UHGV virus genome: UHGV-0072940
Source: a virus
Length of the DNA: 16,360 nucleotides
Reading direction: 5' to 3' (one strand)
The number at the start of each line of letters is the position of its first letter. Positions within the stretch are counted from its first letter, which is position 1. Shown piece by piece: positions 1,525 through 16,310 of this stretch. A program made the position numbers and the translations under genes. The notes beneath the pieces were generated by a model. The model worked only from the letters and a program-made list of their open reading frames with translations. It was not told the DNA's origin and did not search any database.

Positions 1525-1815
1525 TCATCTTTTAACTCCATATACCGCCAATACCCGTTTCATCACTGCACTCTGGCGACACTCCTTAAAAATCAGGTTC
1601 GTGCTCACCTTTCCTTCCCGTTCTTCCCTGGTAGCAAACCGGTAATACACCGTTCGCCAGACCTTACCATCAATGACAAGGATTCCTGCCCGCGCCATTT
1701 TAGCCGCAGCCTGATTTATACTGGTTACGGTTGCGCCTGTTAGCGCGGCAACGTCCGGCGCACAGAAGCTATTATGCGTCCCCAGGTAATGAATAATTGC
1801 CTCTTTGCCCGTCAT
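1525..1815 (-). CDS. ren: Ren protein
   Basis: 96-aa product MTGKEAIIHYLGTHNSFCAPDVAALTGATVTS matches lambda Ren as recalled. Same length as lambda ren (291 nt). ATG overlaps the P stop (ATGA). Confidence 0.85.
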   Translation of the reverse strand: MTGKEAIIHYLGTHNSFCAPDVAALTGATVTSINQAAAKMARAGILVIDGKVWRTVYYRFATREEREGKVSTNLIFKECRQSAVMKRVLAVYGVKR

Positions 1816-2513
1816 ACACTTGCTCCTTTCAGTCCGAACTTAGCTTTAATTTCTGCGATCTTCGCCAGCGCCTGAACATGATTTAGAGGTCTGCCGCCCA
1901 TGACAGGAAGTTGTTTTACTGGTTCAGGGATCGCCTCACCACGGTTAATTCTCGCAGTCATATGGACAAGCTCATCTGCGGCCTTACGGCGTAATTCCGC
2001 ATCAGTAAGCGCATTGGCCCGCATGTTCTGATACAGGTTGGTAACCAGCCAGTAGTGCGCGTTTGATTTCCACGGATAAGACTCCGCATCCGGATACAGG
2101 CCTCGCTTCCGGCAATACTCGTAAACCATATCAACCAGCTCGCTGACGTTTGGCAGTCCGGCGATAACGGATGCTTCTTCCCGGCACCATGCAACAAACT
2201 GCCCGGGTGATGGCAGAAATGGTCGATTCTGCCGACGGGCTACGCGCATTCCTGCGTTAACCTGTTCCATTGTGGTGATCCCGTTTTCCCGGAAAGCCAG
2301 AACCCACTGGCGGCGGATTTCGTTCAGTTCGTTCTGGTCACGGTTAGCCAGACTCGCCGGGAAAGTTGCCAGTAACTGGCTGAACACACCGTTGATGATC
2401 TGCGCAACCTGCTGTACCTGCGGCTTTTCGTCGTACTGTTCCGGCATGTTGTTGGCGATCCGACGCATCTGCTCACGGTCAAAGTTAACCATCTGTGCGG
2501 CGATGTTTTTCAT
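1812..2513 (-). CDS. P: replication protein P (DnaB helicase loader)
   Basis: 233-aa product MKNIAAQMVNFDREQMRRIANNMPEQYDEKPQVQQVAQIINGVFSQLL is near-identical to lambda P as recalled. 702 nt, as in lambda. ATG overlaps the O stop. Confidence 0.9.
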   Translation of the reverse strand: MKNIAAQMVNFDREQMRRIANNMPEQYDEKPQVQQVAQIINGVFSQLLATFPASLANRDQNELNEIRRQWVLAFRENGITTMEQVNAGMRVARRQNRPFLPSPGQFVAWCREEASVIAGLPNVSELVDMVYEYCRKRGLYPDAESYPWKSNAHYWLVTNLYQNMRANALTDAELRRKAADELVHMTARINRGEAIPEPVKQLPVMGGRPLNHVQALAKIAEIKAKFGLKGASV

Positions 2514-3448
2514 AAATCCACCCCGTAAATCCAGTCAGTGTTTGTCAGGTCGAGTTTTGGTTTTCCAGCTGTCACGCCAGCCTGTTGCTTGTTACGGTTG
2601 ATTTCGAGTTGGGTCCACTTGTCGCGGAGTTTGGCCGGACTTAGCACGTTACCGGACCAGAAGTTGTCCTGGCATGCCCAGCGGAACAGCACGCACATGT
2701 CGCGGTGGTTACGTCCGTCACGTTCACGCATCAGGCGGATATCGTTAGCCCACCCTGCAAAATTCGGTTTTCTGGCTGATGGTGCGATGGTCTTCACCAT
2801 GTCAAACATCCACTCTGCGGCGGTCAGGTCTTCTGCTGTTCCCCACTTGCTGCCGCTCTGAATTGCAGCATCCGGTTTAACCACAGAAAGATCGTTTTCT
2901 GGCTGGTCAGAGGATTCGCCAGAATTCTCGGACGAATAATCTTTTCTTTTTTCTTTTGTAATAGTGTCTTTTGTGTCCCCCTGTTTTGAGGGATAGCAAT
3001 CCCCTAATTTGAGGGATGTTTTATCCCTCGTTTTAGGGGATTTTCCCTCGTTTTGAGGGATGTCCCTCATTTTAGGGGAACCTCCCTCGTTTTGAGGGAT
3101 GCACCATTCTGAGGTGTTTTTATTTGGTCCAAACATGCCGCCTTGCTGCTTGATAATATTCATTCTGACGAGTTCTAACTTGGCTTCATTGCACCGTTTG
3201 ACGGGTAACTTTGTAATCTCGCTAAGTTGAGAATCGGTGATTCTGTCCATTGGTTTATTCCACCCATAGGTTTTACGCAGAATGGCAAGCAGCACTTTAA
3301 ACTGTCGCTTGGTCAGATCTGCGCCTGAATAAGCCTCAAGCAGCATATTTGATAGTCTGGCGTAACCATCATCGAGATCTGCCACATTACGCTCCTGTTC
3401 GGCAAAGTTACCTCTGCCGAAGTTGAGTATTTTTGCTGTATTTGTCAT
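2510..3448 (-). CDS. O: replication initiator protein O
   Basis: 312-aa product. The N-terminal (MTNTAKILNFGRGNFAEQERNVADLDDGYARLSNMLLEAY) and C-terminal parts match lambda O; the central part is encoded by the iteron array. GGAG RBS 7 nt upstream of ATG 3448..3446. Confidence 0.9.
   Translation of the reverse strand: MTNTAKILNFGRGNFAEQERNVADLDDGYARLSNMLLEAYSGADLTKRQFKVLLAILRKTYGWNKPMDRITDSQLSEITKLPVKRCNEAKLELVRMNIIKQQGGMFGPNKNTSEWCIPQNEGGSPKMRDIPQNEGKSPKTRDKTSLKLGDCYPSKQGDTKDTITKEKRKDYSSENSGESSDQPENDLSVVKPDAAIQSGSKWGTAEDLTAAEWMFDMVKTIAPSARKPNFAGWANDIRLMRERDGRNHRDMCVLFRWACQDNFWSGNVLSPAKLRDKWTQLEINRNKQQAGVTAGKPKLDLTNTDWIYGVDL
2976..3100. repeat. ori iterons, about 6 copies of a ~19-bp O-binding repeat, with an adjacent AT-rich region at 2930..2975
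   Basis: Tandem units of the form tCCCTCnttTTgAGGGAt at about 2976..2994, 2999..3017, 3023..3041, 3043..3061, 3062..3079 and 3081..3100, all inside the O reading frame. They are followed, in the direction of O transcription, by an A/T-rich run (aataatcttttcttttttcttttgtaatagtg). Confidence 0.8.
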
Positions 3449-3458
3449 AATGACTCCT

Positions 3459-3535
3459 GTGGATTGATCCAGTAATTCCCTCAGAATTGCATATCAATTT
3501 GCTTAGAGTCCCCGGCGGCCACCGGGGATTTTTTC
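3459..3535 (+). ncRNA. oop: OOP-like antisense RNA (about 77 nt) with its promoter pO and terminator
   Basis: Plus-strand promoter-like hexamers TTGAGT (3424..3429), 16-bp spacer, CATAAT (3446..3451). Intrinsic terminator: stem CCCCGG (3510..3515) / CCGGGG (3522..3527) followed by TTTTTT. The transcript is antisense to the 3' end of cII and lies in the O-cII gap, as lambda oop does. Confidence 0.6.
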
Positions 3536-3777
3536 TTTGTGATTTCATCAAGCGCATACTTAAAAGCCCTGCTAATCGGACTGATGTCTGATGCCATTCC
3601 GAAAGCACACAGGACCGAAGCAATAAACCGCCAGTCCGTTCTGCTTATCTTCGATTCATGACAGCCAATCATCTTTGCCAGACCGCGCTGGGTAAGCGTT
3701 GACAGGTTGATGAGTAAATCAGTTTCAGCGCGATCAATTTCTCGCTGTGATAGTTTGCTGTAACTTGTTTGTTCCAT
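3481..3777 (-). CDS. cII: CII-like transcriptional activator
   Basis: 98 aa. The C-terminal KKKSPVAAGDSKQIDMQF resembles lambda CII KKRPAATERSEQIQMEF, there is a central HTH-like segment, and the gene sits between cro and O. Divergent from lambda CII overall. Confidence 0.7.
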   Translation of the reverse strand: MEQTSYSKLSQREIDRAETDLLINLSTLTQRGLAKMIGCHESKISRTDWRFIASVLCAFGMASDISPISRAFKYALDEITKKKSPVAAGDSKQIDMQF

Positions 3778-3790
3778 TTCTTAAGATTTC
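3755..3790 (+). promoter_or_regulatory. putative CII-dependent establishment promoter (pRE-like)
   Basis: TTGC-N6-TTGT direct repeat at 3755..3768 inside the first codons of cII on the opposite strand, with a weak -10 candidate TAAGAT at 3782..3787. The orientation would send transcripts antisense through cro into cI. Confidence 0.4.
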
Positions 3791-3862
3791 CAATAGTGAA
3801 TAGTTAGTTGAAAGGTATGCGTGGAAACGCATGTGGCCTTAGTTGGTCAGATATATTGGGAC

Positions 3863-3908
3863 TCGCTTTGTCAGCGACGTAGGACGAATGTCCATTGTGA
3901 AAAGAGCG
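3863..3908 (-). promoter_or_regulatory. nutR: boxA, spacer hairpin, boxB
   Basis: Minus-strand reading: boxA CGCTCTTTT (3908..3900) 8 nt past the cro stop; a spacer containing a GGAC/GTCC hairpin (3882..3893); CTACG; then boxB UCGCUGACAAAGCGA (3877..3863), a 5-bp stem with a GACAA pentaloop. Confidence 0.6.
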
Positions 3909-3915
3909 GTGTTAC

Positions 3916-4143
3916 TTATGCAGCCAGAAGGTTCTTTTTGCTTATTTCAAGCATTTCGCTTGCTTGATATTTGCCACCAGAAATCTCTTCGATTTTTGAT
4001 GCGTATTTAGTTTTCCCAAAAAACTCAGTCTTAGGGAGGAAGCCGTTTTTGAGCCACTTATAGACAGCCCTTTCGCTAACTCCACAAGCCTTCGCAACTT
4101 CAGGGATGCCGACACCTTTAATCGGCTCATCAAGATTTTGCAT
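3916..4143 (-). CDS. cro: Cro-like repressor (HTH)
   Basis: 75-aa product with HTH segment GIPEVAKACGVSERAVYKWLKNG. First gene of the PR operon, divergent from cI. AAGGA RBS upstream of ATG 4143..4141. Confidence 0.75.
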   Translation of the reverse strand: MQNLDEPIKGVGIPEVAKACGVSERAVYKWLKNGFLPKTEFFGKTKYASKIEEISGGKYQASEMLEISKKNLLAA

Positions 4144-4221
4144 AGGAATATCCTTTTTCGTACTTTCAGTACGTATTATGGTTGAACTGAAAGTTTTTGC
4201 AAGTGCTTTAGTATCGTACTC
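4144..4221. promoter_or_regulatory. OR operator region with divergent PR (minus) and PRM (plus)
   Basis: PR on the minus strand: -35 TTGCAA (4197..4202), 16-bp spacer, -10 CATAAT (4175..4180). Dyad sites: CGTACTTTCAGTACG (4159..4173) and GAACTGAAAGTTT (4184..4196), centres 24 bp apart; a third dyad AGTATCGTACT (4210..4220) overlaps a PRM -10 candidate TAGTAT (4208..4213). The cI ATG at 4222 is about 8 nt from that -10, so the cI mRNA is probably leaderless. Confidence 0.6.
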
Positions 4222-4929
4222 ATGGTTCAGAATGAAAAAGTGCGCAAAGAATTCGCCCAGCGGCTAGCGCAAGCCTGTAAAGAAGCTGGTCTTGATGAAC
4301 ATGGTAGGGGAATGGCTATAGCCCGTGCCCTTTCTCTTTCGTCCAAAGGCGTTAGCAAATGGTTTAATGCTGAGTCTTTACCGCGTCAGGAAAAAATGAA
4401 TGCGCTTGCGAAATTTCTAAACGTTGATGTTGTTTGGCTTCAGCACGGCACTTCGTTAAATGGAGCGAATGATGAAGATACTCTTTCATTTGTTGGCAAA
4501 TTAAAAAAAGGGTTAGTGCGCGTGGTTGGTGAGGCAATTCTTGGTGTTGATGGTGCCATCGAGATGACCGAAGAGCGCGATGGGTGGCTCAAAATTTATA
4601 GCGATGATCCAGATGCCTTTGGTCTTCGTGTGAAAGGAGACAGCATGTGGCCCAGAATAAAATCAGGAGAATATGTACTCATTGAGCCTAACACCAAAGT
4701 ATTCCCGGGTGATGAGGTGTTTGTCAGAACCGTTGAAGGACACAACATGATTAAGGTTCTTGGCTATGACAGAGATGGAGAATACCAATTTACAAGCATT
4801 AACCAGGATCACAGGCCTATAACGTTGCCTTATCATCAAGTAGCAAAGGTGGAGTATGTAGCTGGTATTCTGAAGCAATCTCGCCATCTGGATGACATCG
4901 AGGCAAGGGAGTGGCTGAAAAGTTCGTGA
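4222..4929 (+). CDS. cI: CI-type prophage repressor (N-terminal HTH, C-terminal S24/LexA-like peptidase domain)
   Basis: 235 aa. N-terminal HTH region, C-terminal GDSMWP serine motif with a downstream Lys (NMIKVLGYD). Divergent from cro across an operator region. Not lambda immunity by sequence. Confidence 0.85.
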   Translation: MVQNEKVRKEFAQRLAQACKEAGLDEHGRGMAIARALSLSSKGVSKWFNAESLPRQEKMNALAKFLNVDVVWLQHGTSLNGANDEDTLSFVGKLKKGLVRVVGEAILGVDGAIEMTEERDGWLKIYSDDPDAFGLRVKGDSMWPRIKSGEYVLIEPNTKVFPGDEVFVRTVEGHNMIKVLGYDRDGEYQFTSINQDHRPITLPYHQVAKVEYVAGILKQSRHLDDIEAREWLKSS

Positions 4930-4989
4930 CTTCATCGTCACATAGCTGGTAACCAGTGGCCAGAAGAAACGTTTGGGTGAGGAGGATAG

Positions 4990-5331
4990 ATGGCGTTCAC
5001 TGACCTTGAATATCAAGCGGTCAAAAAAGAAGTTCACCAATTCATTGAAAGCATAAGGCCGCCTGAACATATCCGCAATGAACTGGATATTGTTTATAGC
5101 ATCAATGACCAAACGATAGATATCGGCGAACAGCGCCCCGTGTGGCAGGGCAACCCAGGTGAAACAAACATCCTGCCATCAGCAAGAATCAAGTACATAC
5201 GTTCTCTGGATAGATGGAAAATCTATTGGATGCGGAAGGATATGAAATGGCATCAGTACAGTACTGAACTTTCGCTGACTGATGCGCTTGAGCTTGTGCG
5301 TGCTGACCCGGATTGCTGCTTCTTCGGATGA
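4990..5331 (+). CDS. hypothetical protein A (113 aa), first gene of the cI-linked operon
   Basis: Strong RBS GAGGAGG 5 nt upstream of ATG 4990. No terminator between the cI stop (4929) and this gene. No recognisable motif. Confidence 0.6.
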   Translation: MAFTDLEYQAVKKEVHQFIESIRPPEHIRNELDIVYSINDQTIDIGEQRPVWQGNPGETNILPSARIKYIRSLDRWKIYWMRKDMKWHQYSTELSLTDALELVRADPDCCFFG

Positions 5332-5401
5332 GTGAAGAGACGTTTGGATGATGGATGGTCGCAGAGATGCTCGTAGAGCATACAGCGATGCAGGAGAATT
5401 T

Positions 5402-5836
5402 ATGGCACTTAATTTAGAAAGAATATCTTTTATAACCCCATTTGATAGCAGCGAAGAACCCAACCAACCGACGCTTAATTTTACATGCAATGAATTTCCT
5501 GCGCGGCTATCAATTGATTTCAGGGTTGGTATGATCGGGTTGAAACCAAATTCAAGATATAATTTGGGTATTATGGTAATCCCCGCGCACCTAATTATAA
5601 AAAAAGGTGAGGAAATTCAATTCCCTGACGGCTCTTCGGAATCAGTTTCACTTTTCATCGATACGAAAGATAGCCATTTTGAAACAGGGGTTGGCGGACA
5701 GGTAATAGTAACATTGAAAGAAATTAGGGTCCCAGCTAAAGGGCTGTATAGTGTTATAGGGATATTGCAAGATAATGAAGACCCTAAAAATGAACTTCAT
5801 AAAAATGAATCATTTTTCACCGTAGAGCTATTATGA
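5402..5836 (+). CDS. hypothetical protein B (144 aa), second gene of the cI-linked operon
   Basis: Start placed at the internal ATG 5402 preceded by AGGAG (six-frame ORF begins at 5348). AT-rich coding sequence. Stop overlaps the next start (ATGA at 5833..5836). Confidence 0.55.
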   Translation: MALNLERISFITPFDSSEEPNQPTLNFTCNEFPARLSIDFRVGMIGLKPNSRYNLGIMVIPAHLIIKKGEEIQFPDGSSESVSLFIDTKDSHFETGVGGQVIVTLKEIRVPAKGLYSVIGILQDNEDPKNELHKNESFFTVELL

Positions 5837-6453
5837 GTGACGACAGTAATTTAAATAATCATGGAAAGCAAGACACCAACATATCTGAAAGCCGGAGGTT
5901 GAAGGTTGTTGGCGGTTCTGATTTTGAGGCTGAATTTGATAATTCTCCCACCAAGGTGCAAAATAATTACATAAAACCGCCACAAACGGAGGAAGAAGTG
6001 GGAACGATCAGCAGAGAGGAACTTGATGCTCGCTTAGCTGCTAATAAAGCAGAGATGGAGTCTATTGCTTCCTCCATTAGGGCTGACATGGCTCTATCTC
6101 GTGAAAGCGTTAATGTCCAATTTGCATCACTTAATGCAGCCATAAGCTCTCTATCGTCCAAGATCGATGGAAAGATGGATAGCGCTGCTGGCGATATAAA
6201 AGCAATTAATGGGAGATTCGAAGGAATTCAAGGACAAATAACAGGGGTTAATACCGCAATTAGTGGTGTTCAGTCGGGTATTTCTATACGATTAGCCATT
6301 TTTAGTGTCATTATCGCTGTAATAGTTGCGATTCCCGGGCTGGTATCAGCTTTAAAGTCAGACCACGCACCTTTGCAACAGCCTTCCACTTTGCAAGCGC
6401 CGCCACAAAATACCCAGCCAACAGACAACAAAAAAATCACTCCCCAGCATTAA
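5833..6453 (+). CDS. hypothetical membrane-anchored protein C (206 aa), third gene of the cI-linked operon
   Basis: Translationally coupled to B. Polar N-terminus, long Ala/Ser/Ile-rich helical segment, one hydrophobic span LAIFSVIIAVIVAIPGLVSAL near the C-terminus, then a Pro/Gln-rich tail. Confidence 0.6.
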   Translation: MSDDSNLNNHGKQDTNISESRRLKVVGGSDFEAEFDNSPTKVQNNYIKPPQTEEEVGTISREELDARLAANKAEMESIASSIRADMALSRESVNVQFASLNAAISSLSSKIDGKMDSAAGDIKAINGRFEGIQGQITGVNTAISGVQSGISIRLAIFSVIIAVIVAIPGLVSALKSDHAPLQQPSTLQAPPQNTQPTDNKKITPQH

Positions 6454-6460
6454 CGCATTA

Positions 6461-6488
6461 ACCCGGCTTCCGCGCCGGGTTTTCTTTG
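6461..6488 (+). terminator. rho-independent terminator closing the cI operon
   Basis: Stem CCCGGC (6463..6468) / GCCGGG (6474..6479), 5-nt loop, then TTTTCTTTG, immediately after the stop of gene C. Confidence 0.65.
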
Positions 6489-14301: not shown

Positions 14302-15588
14302 ATGAGTAACGTATCATACCCGACAGGCGTTGAAAACCATGGAGGATCACTCCGTATATGGTTTCACTATAATGGCAAACGTGTCAGAGAAAACCTCGGT
14401 GTTCCTGACACCGCCAAAAACCGGAAGATCGCAGGTGAACTTCGCACTTCCGTTTGTTTTGCAATCAGAATGGGGAGTTTCGACTACGCCACACAGTTCC
14501 CTAATTCCCCTAACCTGAAACACTTTGGTCTGGGAAAAAGAGAGATAACCGTTAAGGCACTTTCGGAAAAATGGTTGGACCTTAAGAAAATTGAGATTTG
14601 TGCGAATGCACTTAATCGTTACCAGTCAGTAATTAAAAACATGTTGCCTATGTTGGGTGAGAAAAAACTGGTTTCATCCATAACAAAAGAGGATTTACTT
14701 TTCGCAAGGAGAGATTTGTTGACCGGTTACCAAAAGCTTTCTAATGGAAAGATTTCTTCCATAAAAGGGCGCTCAGTGGTCACAGTAAACTACTATATGA
14801 CAACCATAGCTGGAATGTTTCAATTTGCAACAGATAATGGTTATACCTCAGGAAACCCATTTAACGGTCTGGCTCCCTTAAAAAAGTCCAAGGTAAAACC
14901 AGATCCTCTCACCCGTGACGAATTTATTCGTTTTATTGAGGCTTGCCGTCATCAACAAACAAAAAACCTGTGGATTCTCGCTGTATACACGGGTATTCGT
15001 CACGGGGAGTTGGTATCGCTGGCATGGGAAGATATAGACCTTAAAGCAAGGACTATAACCATCCGTAGAAATTATACAAAACTTGGCGAATTCACTCCAC
15101 CAAAAACCGATGCAGGCACCGGAAGGACAATTCATCTGGTTCAACCAGCTATTGATGCTCTTAAAAGCCAGGCGGAAATGACCATGCTTGGAAAGCAACA
15201 TTCTGTAGAGGTGAAGCAGAGGGAATATGGGAGAACTGCTGTGCATAAATGCACTTTTGTTTTTAGTCCTCAGGTAACAAAACAGCAGCAGTTGTCCGGA
15301 CCTCACTACAAGGTTGACTCCATCAGGGAGTCATGGACAAGTATCTTAAAACGCGCAGGTCTGAGACACAGAAAATCGTACCAATCCAGGCATACTTATG
15401 CATGCTGGTCACTTGCCGCTGGAGCTAATCCTAGTTTTATCGCAAGCCAGATGGGCCACACAAACGCACAAATGGTATTCAATGTTTACGGAGCATGGAT
15501 GAAAGACAACAATCACGAACAGATAGAACTCCTTAACAAAAGACTATCTGAAAGTGTCCCATGTATGCCCCATAAGAAAGTGGGGTAA
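14302..15588 (+). CDS. int: tyrosine-type site-specific integrase
   Basis: 428 aa. The C-terminal catalytic region carries the conserved residues in the expected order (R in YTGIRHGEL, HTYACW, GHTNAQMVFNVYGAW with the tyrosine nucleophile). GGAGG RBS. Larger than and distinct from lambda Int. Confidence 0.9.
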   Translation: MSNVSYPTGVENHGGSLRIWFHYNGKRVRENLGVPDTAKNRKIAGELRTSVCFAIRMGSFDYATQFPNSPNLKHFGLGKREITVKALSEKWLDLKKIEICANALNRYQSVIKNMLPMLGEKKLVSSITKEDLLFARRDLLTGYQKLSNGKISSIKGRSVVTVNYYMTTIAGMFQFATDNGYTSGNPFNGLAPLKKSKVKPDPLTRDEFIRFIEACRHQQTKNLWILAVYTGIRHGELVSLAWEDIDLKARTITIRRNYTKLGEFTPPKTDAGTGRTIHLVQPAIDALKSQAEMTMLGKQHSVEVKQREYGRTAVHKCTFVFSPQVTKQQQLSGPHYKVDSIRESWTSILKRAGLRHRKSYQSRHTYACWSLAAGANPSFIASQMGHTNAQMVFNVYGAWMKDNNHEQIELLNKRLSESVPCMPHKKVG

Positions 15589-15662: not shown

Positions 15663-16310
15663 TTGCTGAAACCGCAACGGACAGACGGCGGTCATCGGCT
15701 GTTCAACGATGCCGATATTGACCGGATCCGCGAGATCAAACGCTGGATCGACAACGGCGTGCAGGTCAGCAAAGTTAAAATGCTGCTCAGTAATGAAAAT
15801 GTTGATGTGCAGAACGGCTGGCGCGATCAGCAAGAAACATTACTGACTTACCTGCAAAGCGGCAATCTACATAGCCTGCGAACGTGGATCAAAGAGCGCG
15901 GTCAGGATTACCCCGCCCAGACACTCACCACACATCTGTTTATTCCTCTGCGCCGACGGCTTCAGTGCCAACAACCGACTCTCCAGGCGCTGCTGGCGAT
16001 CCTCGACGGCGTACTGATCAACTACATCGCCATTTGTCTGGCTTCGGCACGTAAAAAACAGGGTAAAGATGCGCTGGTGGTTGGCTGGAATATTCAGGAT
16101 ACCACCCGTCTGTGGCTGGAGGGCTGGATTGCCAGTCAACAAGGATGGCGCATTGATGTCCTCGCCCACTCGCTCAATCAACTACGCCCTGAACTATTCG
16201 AAGGCCGTACATTGCTGGTGTGGTGCGGTGAAAATCGAACCTCCGCCCAACAGCAGCAACTCACCAGTTGGCAAGAACAAGGCCATGATATTTTCCCACT
16301 CGGCATTTAA
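15627..16310 (+). pseudogene. mlrA: MerR-family transcriptional regulator, 5'-truncated by prophage insertion (mlrA/yehV-like)
   Basis: The frame encodes PVTLRAWQRRYGLLKPQRTDGGHRLFNDADIDRIREIKRWIDNG and continues to a stop at 16310. Upstream in frame there is no ATG or GTG before a stop at 15591, so the first ~15-20 codons of the HTH are missing. The mlrA assignment rests on recollection that Stx-type lambdoid prophages insert in yehV; the paralogue bluR cannot be excluded without a search. Confidence 0.6.

Follow-up and report, generated by a model that had tools for sequence, protein, structure and literature searches.

The window analyzed here (the whole 16,360 nt stretch of viral genome UHGV-0072940) is filled by the early region of a lambdoid prophage, based on open reading frames (ORFs), Pfam matches, and a promoter scan, with the gene order P-O-cII-nutR-cro / cI-cargo-pL-nutL-N. 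The genes and landmarks that frame the two nut sites are as follows.

1812-2513, minus strand: P (ORF)
2510-3448, minus strand: O (ORF)
3481-3777, minus strand: cII (ORF)
3916-4143, minus strand: cro (ORF)
4222-4929, plus strand: cI (ORF)
6460-6481, plus strand: stem of a terminator-like stem-loop between the cargo ORFs and the pL-like promoter
6672-6700, plus strand: pL-like promoter, TTGATA-17-CATTAT, from the promoter scan and homology to the lambda pL leader
6950-7333, plus strand: N antiterminator gene, 127 aa, with matches to Pfam N_peptide (2e-15) and phrog_271 (3e-39) and the arginine-rich motif FKGNSRSRRRERLKAKA

N, cro, cI, cII, O, and P are all intact ORFs, although the prophage could still be cryptic. 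The cargo between cI and pL (4990-6453, plus strand) occupies the same position as rexAB in lambda and stk in 933W. Its three ORFs comprise one for a DUF3024 protein that matches a PADLOC candidate defense family (PDC-S43, 7e-42) and two of unassigned function (phrog_5893 and phrog_5820) that are common to the immunity regions of HK542 and HK244; where 933W carries stk, the window has HK542-like ORFs. An integrase gene (14302-15588, plus strand) is followed by an ORF (15663-16310) with MlrA helical and C-terminal domains and a partial MerR helix-turn-helix, which suggests that the prophage adjoins or sits inside mlrA (yehV), a known Stx-phage attachment locus. No nut or boxB family was found in Rfam, and the sole relevant Rfam match in the window was the cIII thermoregulator Lambda_thermo (8931-8989, plus strand, 88.5 bits), located upstream of, and overlapping, the start of cIII/kil-like ORFs.

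Organization of nutR

The nutR site lies between cro and cII, beginning seven bases past the cro stop, and reads CGCTCTTTT-CACAAT-GGACATTCGTCC-TACG-TCGCTGACAAAGCGA on the minus strand (3908-3863). Its elements are listed below in the order of transcription.

3900-3908, minus strand: boxA, CGCUCUUUU in RNA and CGCTCTTTT in DNA, sharing 8/9 bases with CGCUCUUUA, the boxA read in P22
3894-3899, minus strand: linker of C plus ACAAU, 5' of the hairpin, from the sequence and its relatives
3882-3893, minus strand: spacer hairpin GGAC-AUUC-GUCC (GGAC 3893-3890, ATTC 3889-3886, GTCC 3885-3882), from the fold z-score, covariation, and the two hairpins of H-19B nutR (PMC3526286)
3878-3881, minus strand: UACG linker from the hairpin to boxB, from the sequence and its relatives
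3863-3877, minus strand: boxB UCGCU-GACAA-AGCGA, a 5-bp stem with a P22-type pentaloop, from folding, the motif scan, and comparison with P22 and H-19B

Read directly on the minus strand, this layout and its coordinates agree with a preliminary description of the locus, made from the sequence alone, which had proposed a boxA, a 22-nt spacer containing a hairpin, CTACG, and a boxB. The spacer between boxA and boxB is indeed 22 nt long and the hairpin is present; however, its loop, previously given as GAAU, is the plus-strand reading, and the loop in the RNA sense is AUUC. Boxes resembling boxA are not above chance in the window when taken alone (three matches to the 9-mer, with 3.5 expected), and the weight of the nutR boxA therefore comes from its position and homology.

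Between nutR and cII, no intrinsic terminator was detected in the window. This interval, the tR1 region, does contain a hairpin (AUGCGU-UUCC-ACGCAU, 3817-3832, minus strand) that is not followed by a U-tract, and Salmonella phages have AUGCGC-CAGU-GCGCAU at the same position, a compensatory change.

Organization of nutL and the pL leader

The nutL site (6745-6784, plus strand) reads ACAAC-GATTCGAATATGAATC-TACG-GCGCTGACAAAGCGC and is located ~60 nt downstream of the pL-like promoter and 165 nt upstream of N. By homology with the lambda pL leader, the pL transcript would start at A6708 of AUCAGCAGGACGC. The leader carries the following elements.

6718-6726, plus strand: CGCAUUACU, with which the 933W record opens its nutL feature (implied boxA); aligned with the pL leader start conserved in lambda and P22
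6726-6740, plus strand: leader hairpin 1, UCACC-AGGGC-GGUGA, from folding; homologue of lambda CACC-AUGAA-GGUG, a hairpin preceding the lambda boxA
6741-6749, plus strand: AUAU plus ACAAC, the place of the boxA core in relatives, with the core absent here
6750-6765, plus strand: spacer hairpin GAUUC-GAAUAU-GAAUC, from folding and covariation
6766-6769, plus strand: UACG linker, from the sequence
6770-6784, plus strand: boxB GCGCU-GACAA-AGCGC (GCGCTGACAAAGCGC), identical to the P22 nutL boxB, from folding

The CTACG (6765-6769) and adjoining boxB (6770-6784) had been described in the same terms before. The structured spacer, on the other hand, had been presented as a trait of nutR; this holds for nutR but not as a property of nutR alone, as the hairpin at 6750-6765 in nutL had been overlooked.

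We found that the earlier statement that nutL has no convincing boxA was not only borne out but strengthened by an alignment of pL leaders. The sequence CAUCAGCAGGACGC opens the leaders of lambda, P22, VT2-Sakai, H-19B, and the window, and CGCAUUACU overlaps this conserved start, while the boxA of lambda and P22 sits 20-30 nt further on. We therefore rejected CGCAUUACU as a real nutL boxA, because it aligns with the conserved 5' leader of these phages and not with their boxA. After leader hairpin 1, relatives carry a boxA core and then ACAAC (for example, UGUUCUUUAC-ACAAC in locus L140), whereas at the homologous position in the window and in H-19B the alignment contains AUAU-ACAAC and no boxA core. 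A nutL lacking this core implies that the action of N there must not depend on a canonical boxA, and that boxA loading of NusB/NusE would not be essential for this N. The missing core would fit the "reduced requirement for host factors" named in the title of the study of H-19B by Neely and Friedman (2000).

Further along the leader, a ~20-bp long-range stem formed by ACUUUGGGGUGUGGUG with CACCACACCACCAAAGU (6795-6937, plus strand, z = -4.2) closes off the ~120 nt that separate nutL from the ribosome-binding site of N. The stem also forms in H-19B, where the inner sequence differs (GGUGAAUGCAG/CUGUAUUCACC), and the lambda homologue is CUUUGGGGUGUGUG. This stem resembles the RNase III site in the lambda N leader that controls N translation.

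Motif frequency and RNA folding

The exact 11-mer GCTGACAAAGC occurs twice in the window, once per strand, and both occurrences are at the expected nut positions; the expected count, even with up to one mismatch, was 0.36. A third match, to GACAAAGC at 13183, was discarded, since it carries one mismatch and is part of a DUF551 ORF, with neither loop nor context resembling boxB.

Folding of both nut regions recovered the boxB hairpins and the nutR spacer hairpin proposed earlier. Together with the nutL spacer hairpin, they are part of both the minimum-free-energy and the centroid structures, with fold z-scores of -3.8 and -3.2 for the two boxBs, -2.7 for the nutR spacer, and -1.4 for the nutR region as a whole. 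The hairpins also persist when the full 252-nt pL leader is folded.

Relationship to the nut sites of H-19B and 933W

Sites with this organization are known, and have been tested experimentally in H-19B (Neely and Friedman 1998, 2000; footprinting by the Sen laboratory, PMC3526286); judged by sequence, the window holds a copy of the published H-19B/933W sites in which nutR carries a single base change. The 46-nt nutR annotated in 933W (GenBank AF125520) corresponds exactly to the window span 3908-3863 and differs by a single boxA base (CGCTATTTT in 933W versus CGCTCTTTT in the window), while the annotated 67-nt nutL of 933W is 100% identical to that of the window. H-19B (GenBank AF034975) has the same nutR as 933W, identical to the window at 45/46 nt including the spacer hairpin, UACG, and boxB; at boxA position 5 the window has C (CGCUCUUUU), whereas both phages have A (CGCUAUUUU). 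The H-19B nutL is one leader base off (CGCACUACU versus CGCAUUACU in the window), and H-19B has another immunity region and other cargo in the interval from cI to pL. We considered whether the C-for-A boxA is unusual and ruled this out, as both variants are common, with the window variant CGCTCTTTT present in about 30 of roughly 75 related IMG/VR loci.

This near-identity supports the assignment of the structured spacer to the H-19B type, as had been suggested in the preliminary description, and the published footprinting of H-19B nutR reports two hairpins (PMC3526286). In the same study, the spacer was protected by NusA and by Rho, the boxB loop was protected in the presence of N, and nutR was found to overlap the rut site of the Rho-dependent terminator tR1 (PMC3526286). 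A literature search on the 933W boxB returned no match.

Stx phages, including 933W, match positions 3400-7400 of the window at 99% identity (megablast), and the N protein is 100% identical to that of many Stx phages, 933W among them, and 97.6% identical to H-19B N. The window as a whole is nonetheless a mosaic, and none of the complete E. coli genomes in the collection carried it over its full length with at least 99% identity, as might be expected if the hairpins and boxB-like sequences were non-functional relics in a defective prophage. We regard this explanation as very unlikely, since the intact N ORF encodes a protein identical to that of inducible Stx phages, each nut site either equals a functional H-19B/933W site or is one base away from it, and the boxA variant is a common one among related loci.

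Comparison with P22 and lambda

In both boxBs, a U-A pair closes the 5-bp stem below a GACAA pentaloop, which is the P22 type, and the earlier assignment of these loops to P22 rather than lambda was upheld by direct comparison, with 15/15 bases shared between the nutL boxB and that of P22 nutL (GCGCUGACAAAGCGC). The P22 sites read CGCTCTTTA-ACTTCGATGAT-GCGCTGACAAAGCGC (nutL) and CGCTCTTTA-CCAATCTGAA-CCGCCGACAACGCGG (nutR). In the solved P22 N-boxB complex (PDB 1A4T), GACAA adopts a GNRA-like fold from which its C is extruded (PMC12550061). P22 has a full CGCUCUUUA boxA in both nut sites and short spacers of 10-11 nt without a hairpin, in contrast to the 22-nt, hairpin-containing spacer of nutR in the window.

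The window N and P22 gp24 can be aligned over an apparently similar arginine-rich motif, FxGN[AS][KR][TS]RR[HR]ER (FKGNSRSRRRER versus FAGNAKTRRHER, with GNSRSRRRER aligned to GNAKTRRHER), whereas the central part of P22 N is unrelated, and a BLASTP comparison of the two proteins was significant at the C-terminus only, where the last 30 aa are 67% identical. A PDB sequence search with N gave no useful match to peptides, because the N peptides are too short.

With lambda, the window shares the positions of the nut sites, the order boxA-spacer-boxB, the 5-bp boxB stem, and a GNRA-like loop. Homology extends to the leader start CAUCAGCAGGACGC, leader hairpin 1, and the stretch that follows boxB. 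Lambda differs in its loops (GAAGA in nutL and GAAAA in nutR), in its unstructured 7-9-nt spacers, and in having a boxA in nutL.

Covariation of the spacer hairpin

To the sites read at related loci selected by their N genes, we added those from a scan of viral contigs with the pattern ACAAY-N(8-26)-TACG-NNGCTGAAAAGC, which demands no pairing in the spacer, for a combined set of 40 unique sites. As the pattern fixes ACAAY, UACG, and the inner boxB, conservation of these parts is not to be judged from that set; in the N-selected loci, ACAAY was kept at the linker position in all those read. A further scan of genome contigs with TACGNNGCTGACAAAGC (15 specified bases, 596 Gb) returned almost entirely chance matches in unrelated bacteria and was excluded from the counts.

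A stem of at least 4 bp that fills the spacer exactly, from directly after ACAAY to UACG, was found in 39/40 sites, compared with 2.2% of shuffled spacers. These stems fall into eight families (GGAC/GUCC, GGGC/GUCC, GGCC/GGCC, GGCA/UGCC, GAUU/AAUC, GAAG/CUUC, GGUG/CACC, and GUCG/CGAC). In an alignment of 35 sequences, 94.3% of cells were paired and four of the five pairs had changed on both sides, giving a covariation score of 0.943, versus 0.197 for shuffled alignments (0/500 reached the observed value) and at most 0.22 when the pairing partner was slid. Loops vary freely while stems are kept, and the few G-U pairs occur in the transcribed sense. The same layout, ACAAY-hairpin-UACG-boxB, is present in Stx phages of the VT2-Sakai type, whose nutR flanks are near identical to those of the window, and in P22-like Salmonella phages (g341c, S135, Si3, and MG40), both groups having GAAA-tetraloop boxBs.

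Dyads of 4-5 bp are common, and the z-score of the whole nutR region is modest, so the dyads might be DNA-level palindromes serving as protein-binding sites, or chance matches, rather than RNA structure. The comparative data make this extremely improbable: compensatory changes and the rarity of hairpins in shuffled spacers set the observed pairing far above the controls, stems were kept as loops varied, and on the opposite strand the few G-U pairs of the transcribed sense would become A-C mismatches, which favors pairing in RNA over DNA. The comparison thus points to selection on the spacer hairpin as an RNA structure, a modest addition to what is known of these sites.

With the hairpin left out of the count, the linear distance from boxA to boxB in nutR is 10 nt (CACAAU plus UACG), similar to the 10-11 nt of P22 and the 7-9 nt of lambda, which fits the "reducer" idea from the work of Neely and Friedman (2000) on H-19B. 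Alternatively, the hairpin could be selected as a specific recognition element, for instance for the RNA-binding domains of NusA or for Rho loading at rut, instead of acting as a passive reducer of distance. The pairing is strongly maintained at a fixed position across eight stem families, NusA and Rho both footprint the spacer of H-19B nutR (PMC3526286), and the nutR hairpin GGACAUUCGUCC is nearly invariant across divergent N types, including phages whose N proteins are only 40% identical. A purely passive "reducer" does not predict this near-invariance, which may reflect either a cro-cII module exchanged recently or a role that depends on the sequence itself. Nevertheless, the stems of nutL and nutR in a single phage are wholly different, as are those of different phages, which argues against sequence-specific recognition, and nutL carries its hairpin without an adjacent tR1-type terminator. 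In H-19B, deletion of the dyad reportedly had little effect. Considering both sides, we find a dedicated recognition element unlikely.

A broader reading, which we consider somewhat less likely than not, takes the hairpin beyond H-19B. It would comprise ACAAY-hairpin-UACG-boxB as a structural module kept by compensatory change across a large group of nut sites in lambdoid phages, both the Stx phages and the P22-like phages of Salmonella, with GACAA as well as GAAA loops, together with the complete loss of the boxA core from H-19B-type nutL and a mis-assigned boxA in the 933W record. If this generalization is new to the literature, it would define a selection-maintained "structured-spacer" nut architecture and would speak for a hairpin that is not simply dispensable.

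Correspondence between boxB class and N motif

Among related loci in which nutL and N were both readable, GACAA boxBs were paired only with the motif FKGNSRSRRRERLKAK, and GAAA boxBs only with motifs of the form G[ST][AS][AS]xRRR[EA]RRA. Phages of the GAAA class have a loop that is one C shorter, N proteins 40%-71% identical to that of the window (tblastn), and, in many cases, a clear nutL boxA. Between nutR and cII, VT2-Sakai and 933W are almost identical, apart from a small number of substitutions and a C that the GACAA loop of 933W has and the GAAA loop of VT2-Sakai lacks. By tblastn, their N proteins show an identity of only 40%, and the two arginine-rich motifs are of different types. This difference looks like a specificity switch via a single-base indel.

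Two other loci show further combinations. The Salmonella phage SPN9CC, with an N 86% identical to that of the window, has a nutL ~125 nt upstream of N (at 6001) whose boxB, GCUC-C-GUCAA-C-GAGC, combines a GUCAA loop with C-C at the closing position, as in P22 nutR (CCGC-C-GACAA-C-GCGG); its nutR reads UCGCUGACAAGGCGA with a U-G closing pair. IMG/VR contig 2563366943_000008 has a GACAA-type site with a GAUUC hairpin and a GAAA-type site with a GAAGA/UCUUC hairpin and a good boxA (CGCUCUUUUAACAAC) on the same strand of one short locus.

Proposed mechanism and implications

The sites occupy the expected positions in the early transcripts, have boxB stems with GNRA-like loops and a cognate N with an arginine-rich motif, and match H-19B/933W in sequence and in a spacer dyad that folds as an RNA hairpin. 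Taken together, we assign a probability of about 0.9 to their being the nutR and nutL of an H-19B/933W-type lambdoid prophage that act as follows. In the pR and pL transcripts, each boxB would fold into a 5-bp stem whose GACAA loop takes a GNRA-like conformation with an extruded C, as the P22 structure shows. Phage N would bind this loop through its arginine-rich N-terminus, and NusA would join on the spacer beside boxB. The ACAAY-UACG hairpin would sequester 12-16 nt, leaving a single-stranded path of ~10 nt between boxA and boxB, as in P22 and lambda, and nutL would work without a boxA core. The RNA-bound complex is then expected to loop back onto RNA polymerase and render it terminator resistant, allowing passage of the Rho-dependent tR1 region before cII-O-P from nutR, and of the terminators downstream of N from nutL.

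N binding, NusA binding, antitermination, and a reduced need for host factors are carried over from published work on H-19B and P22 and are thus probable by analogy. Likewise, the predicted independence of NusB/NusE draws on experiments with H-19B, whose nutR boxA is one base off that of the window.

N antitermination at nut sites controls delayed-early expression and, via Q, the late genes in Stx-type phages, and the N/boxB class tells which phages can cross-activate one another's early operons. For this window, the results are a confirmation rather than a discovery. They add three modest points, namely comparative proof of selection on the spacer hairpin, a single-C difference between GACAA and GAAA loops that tracks the N motif, and evidence for a nutL without a boxA core. 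Mutational studies of how the spacer is shared among NusA, Rho, and N could build on them.
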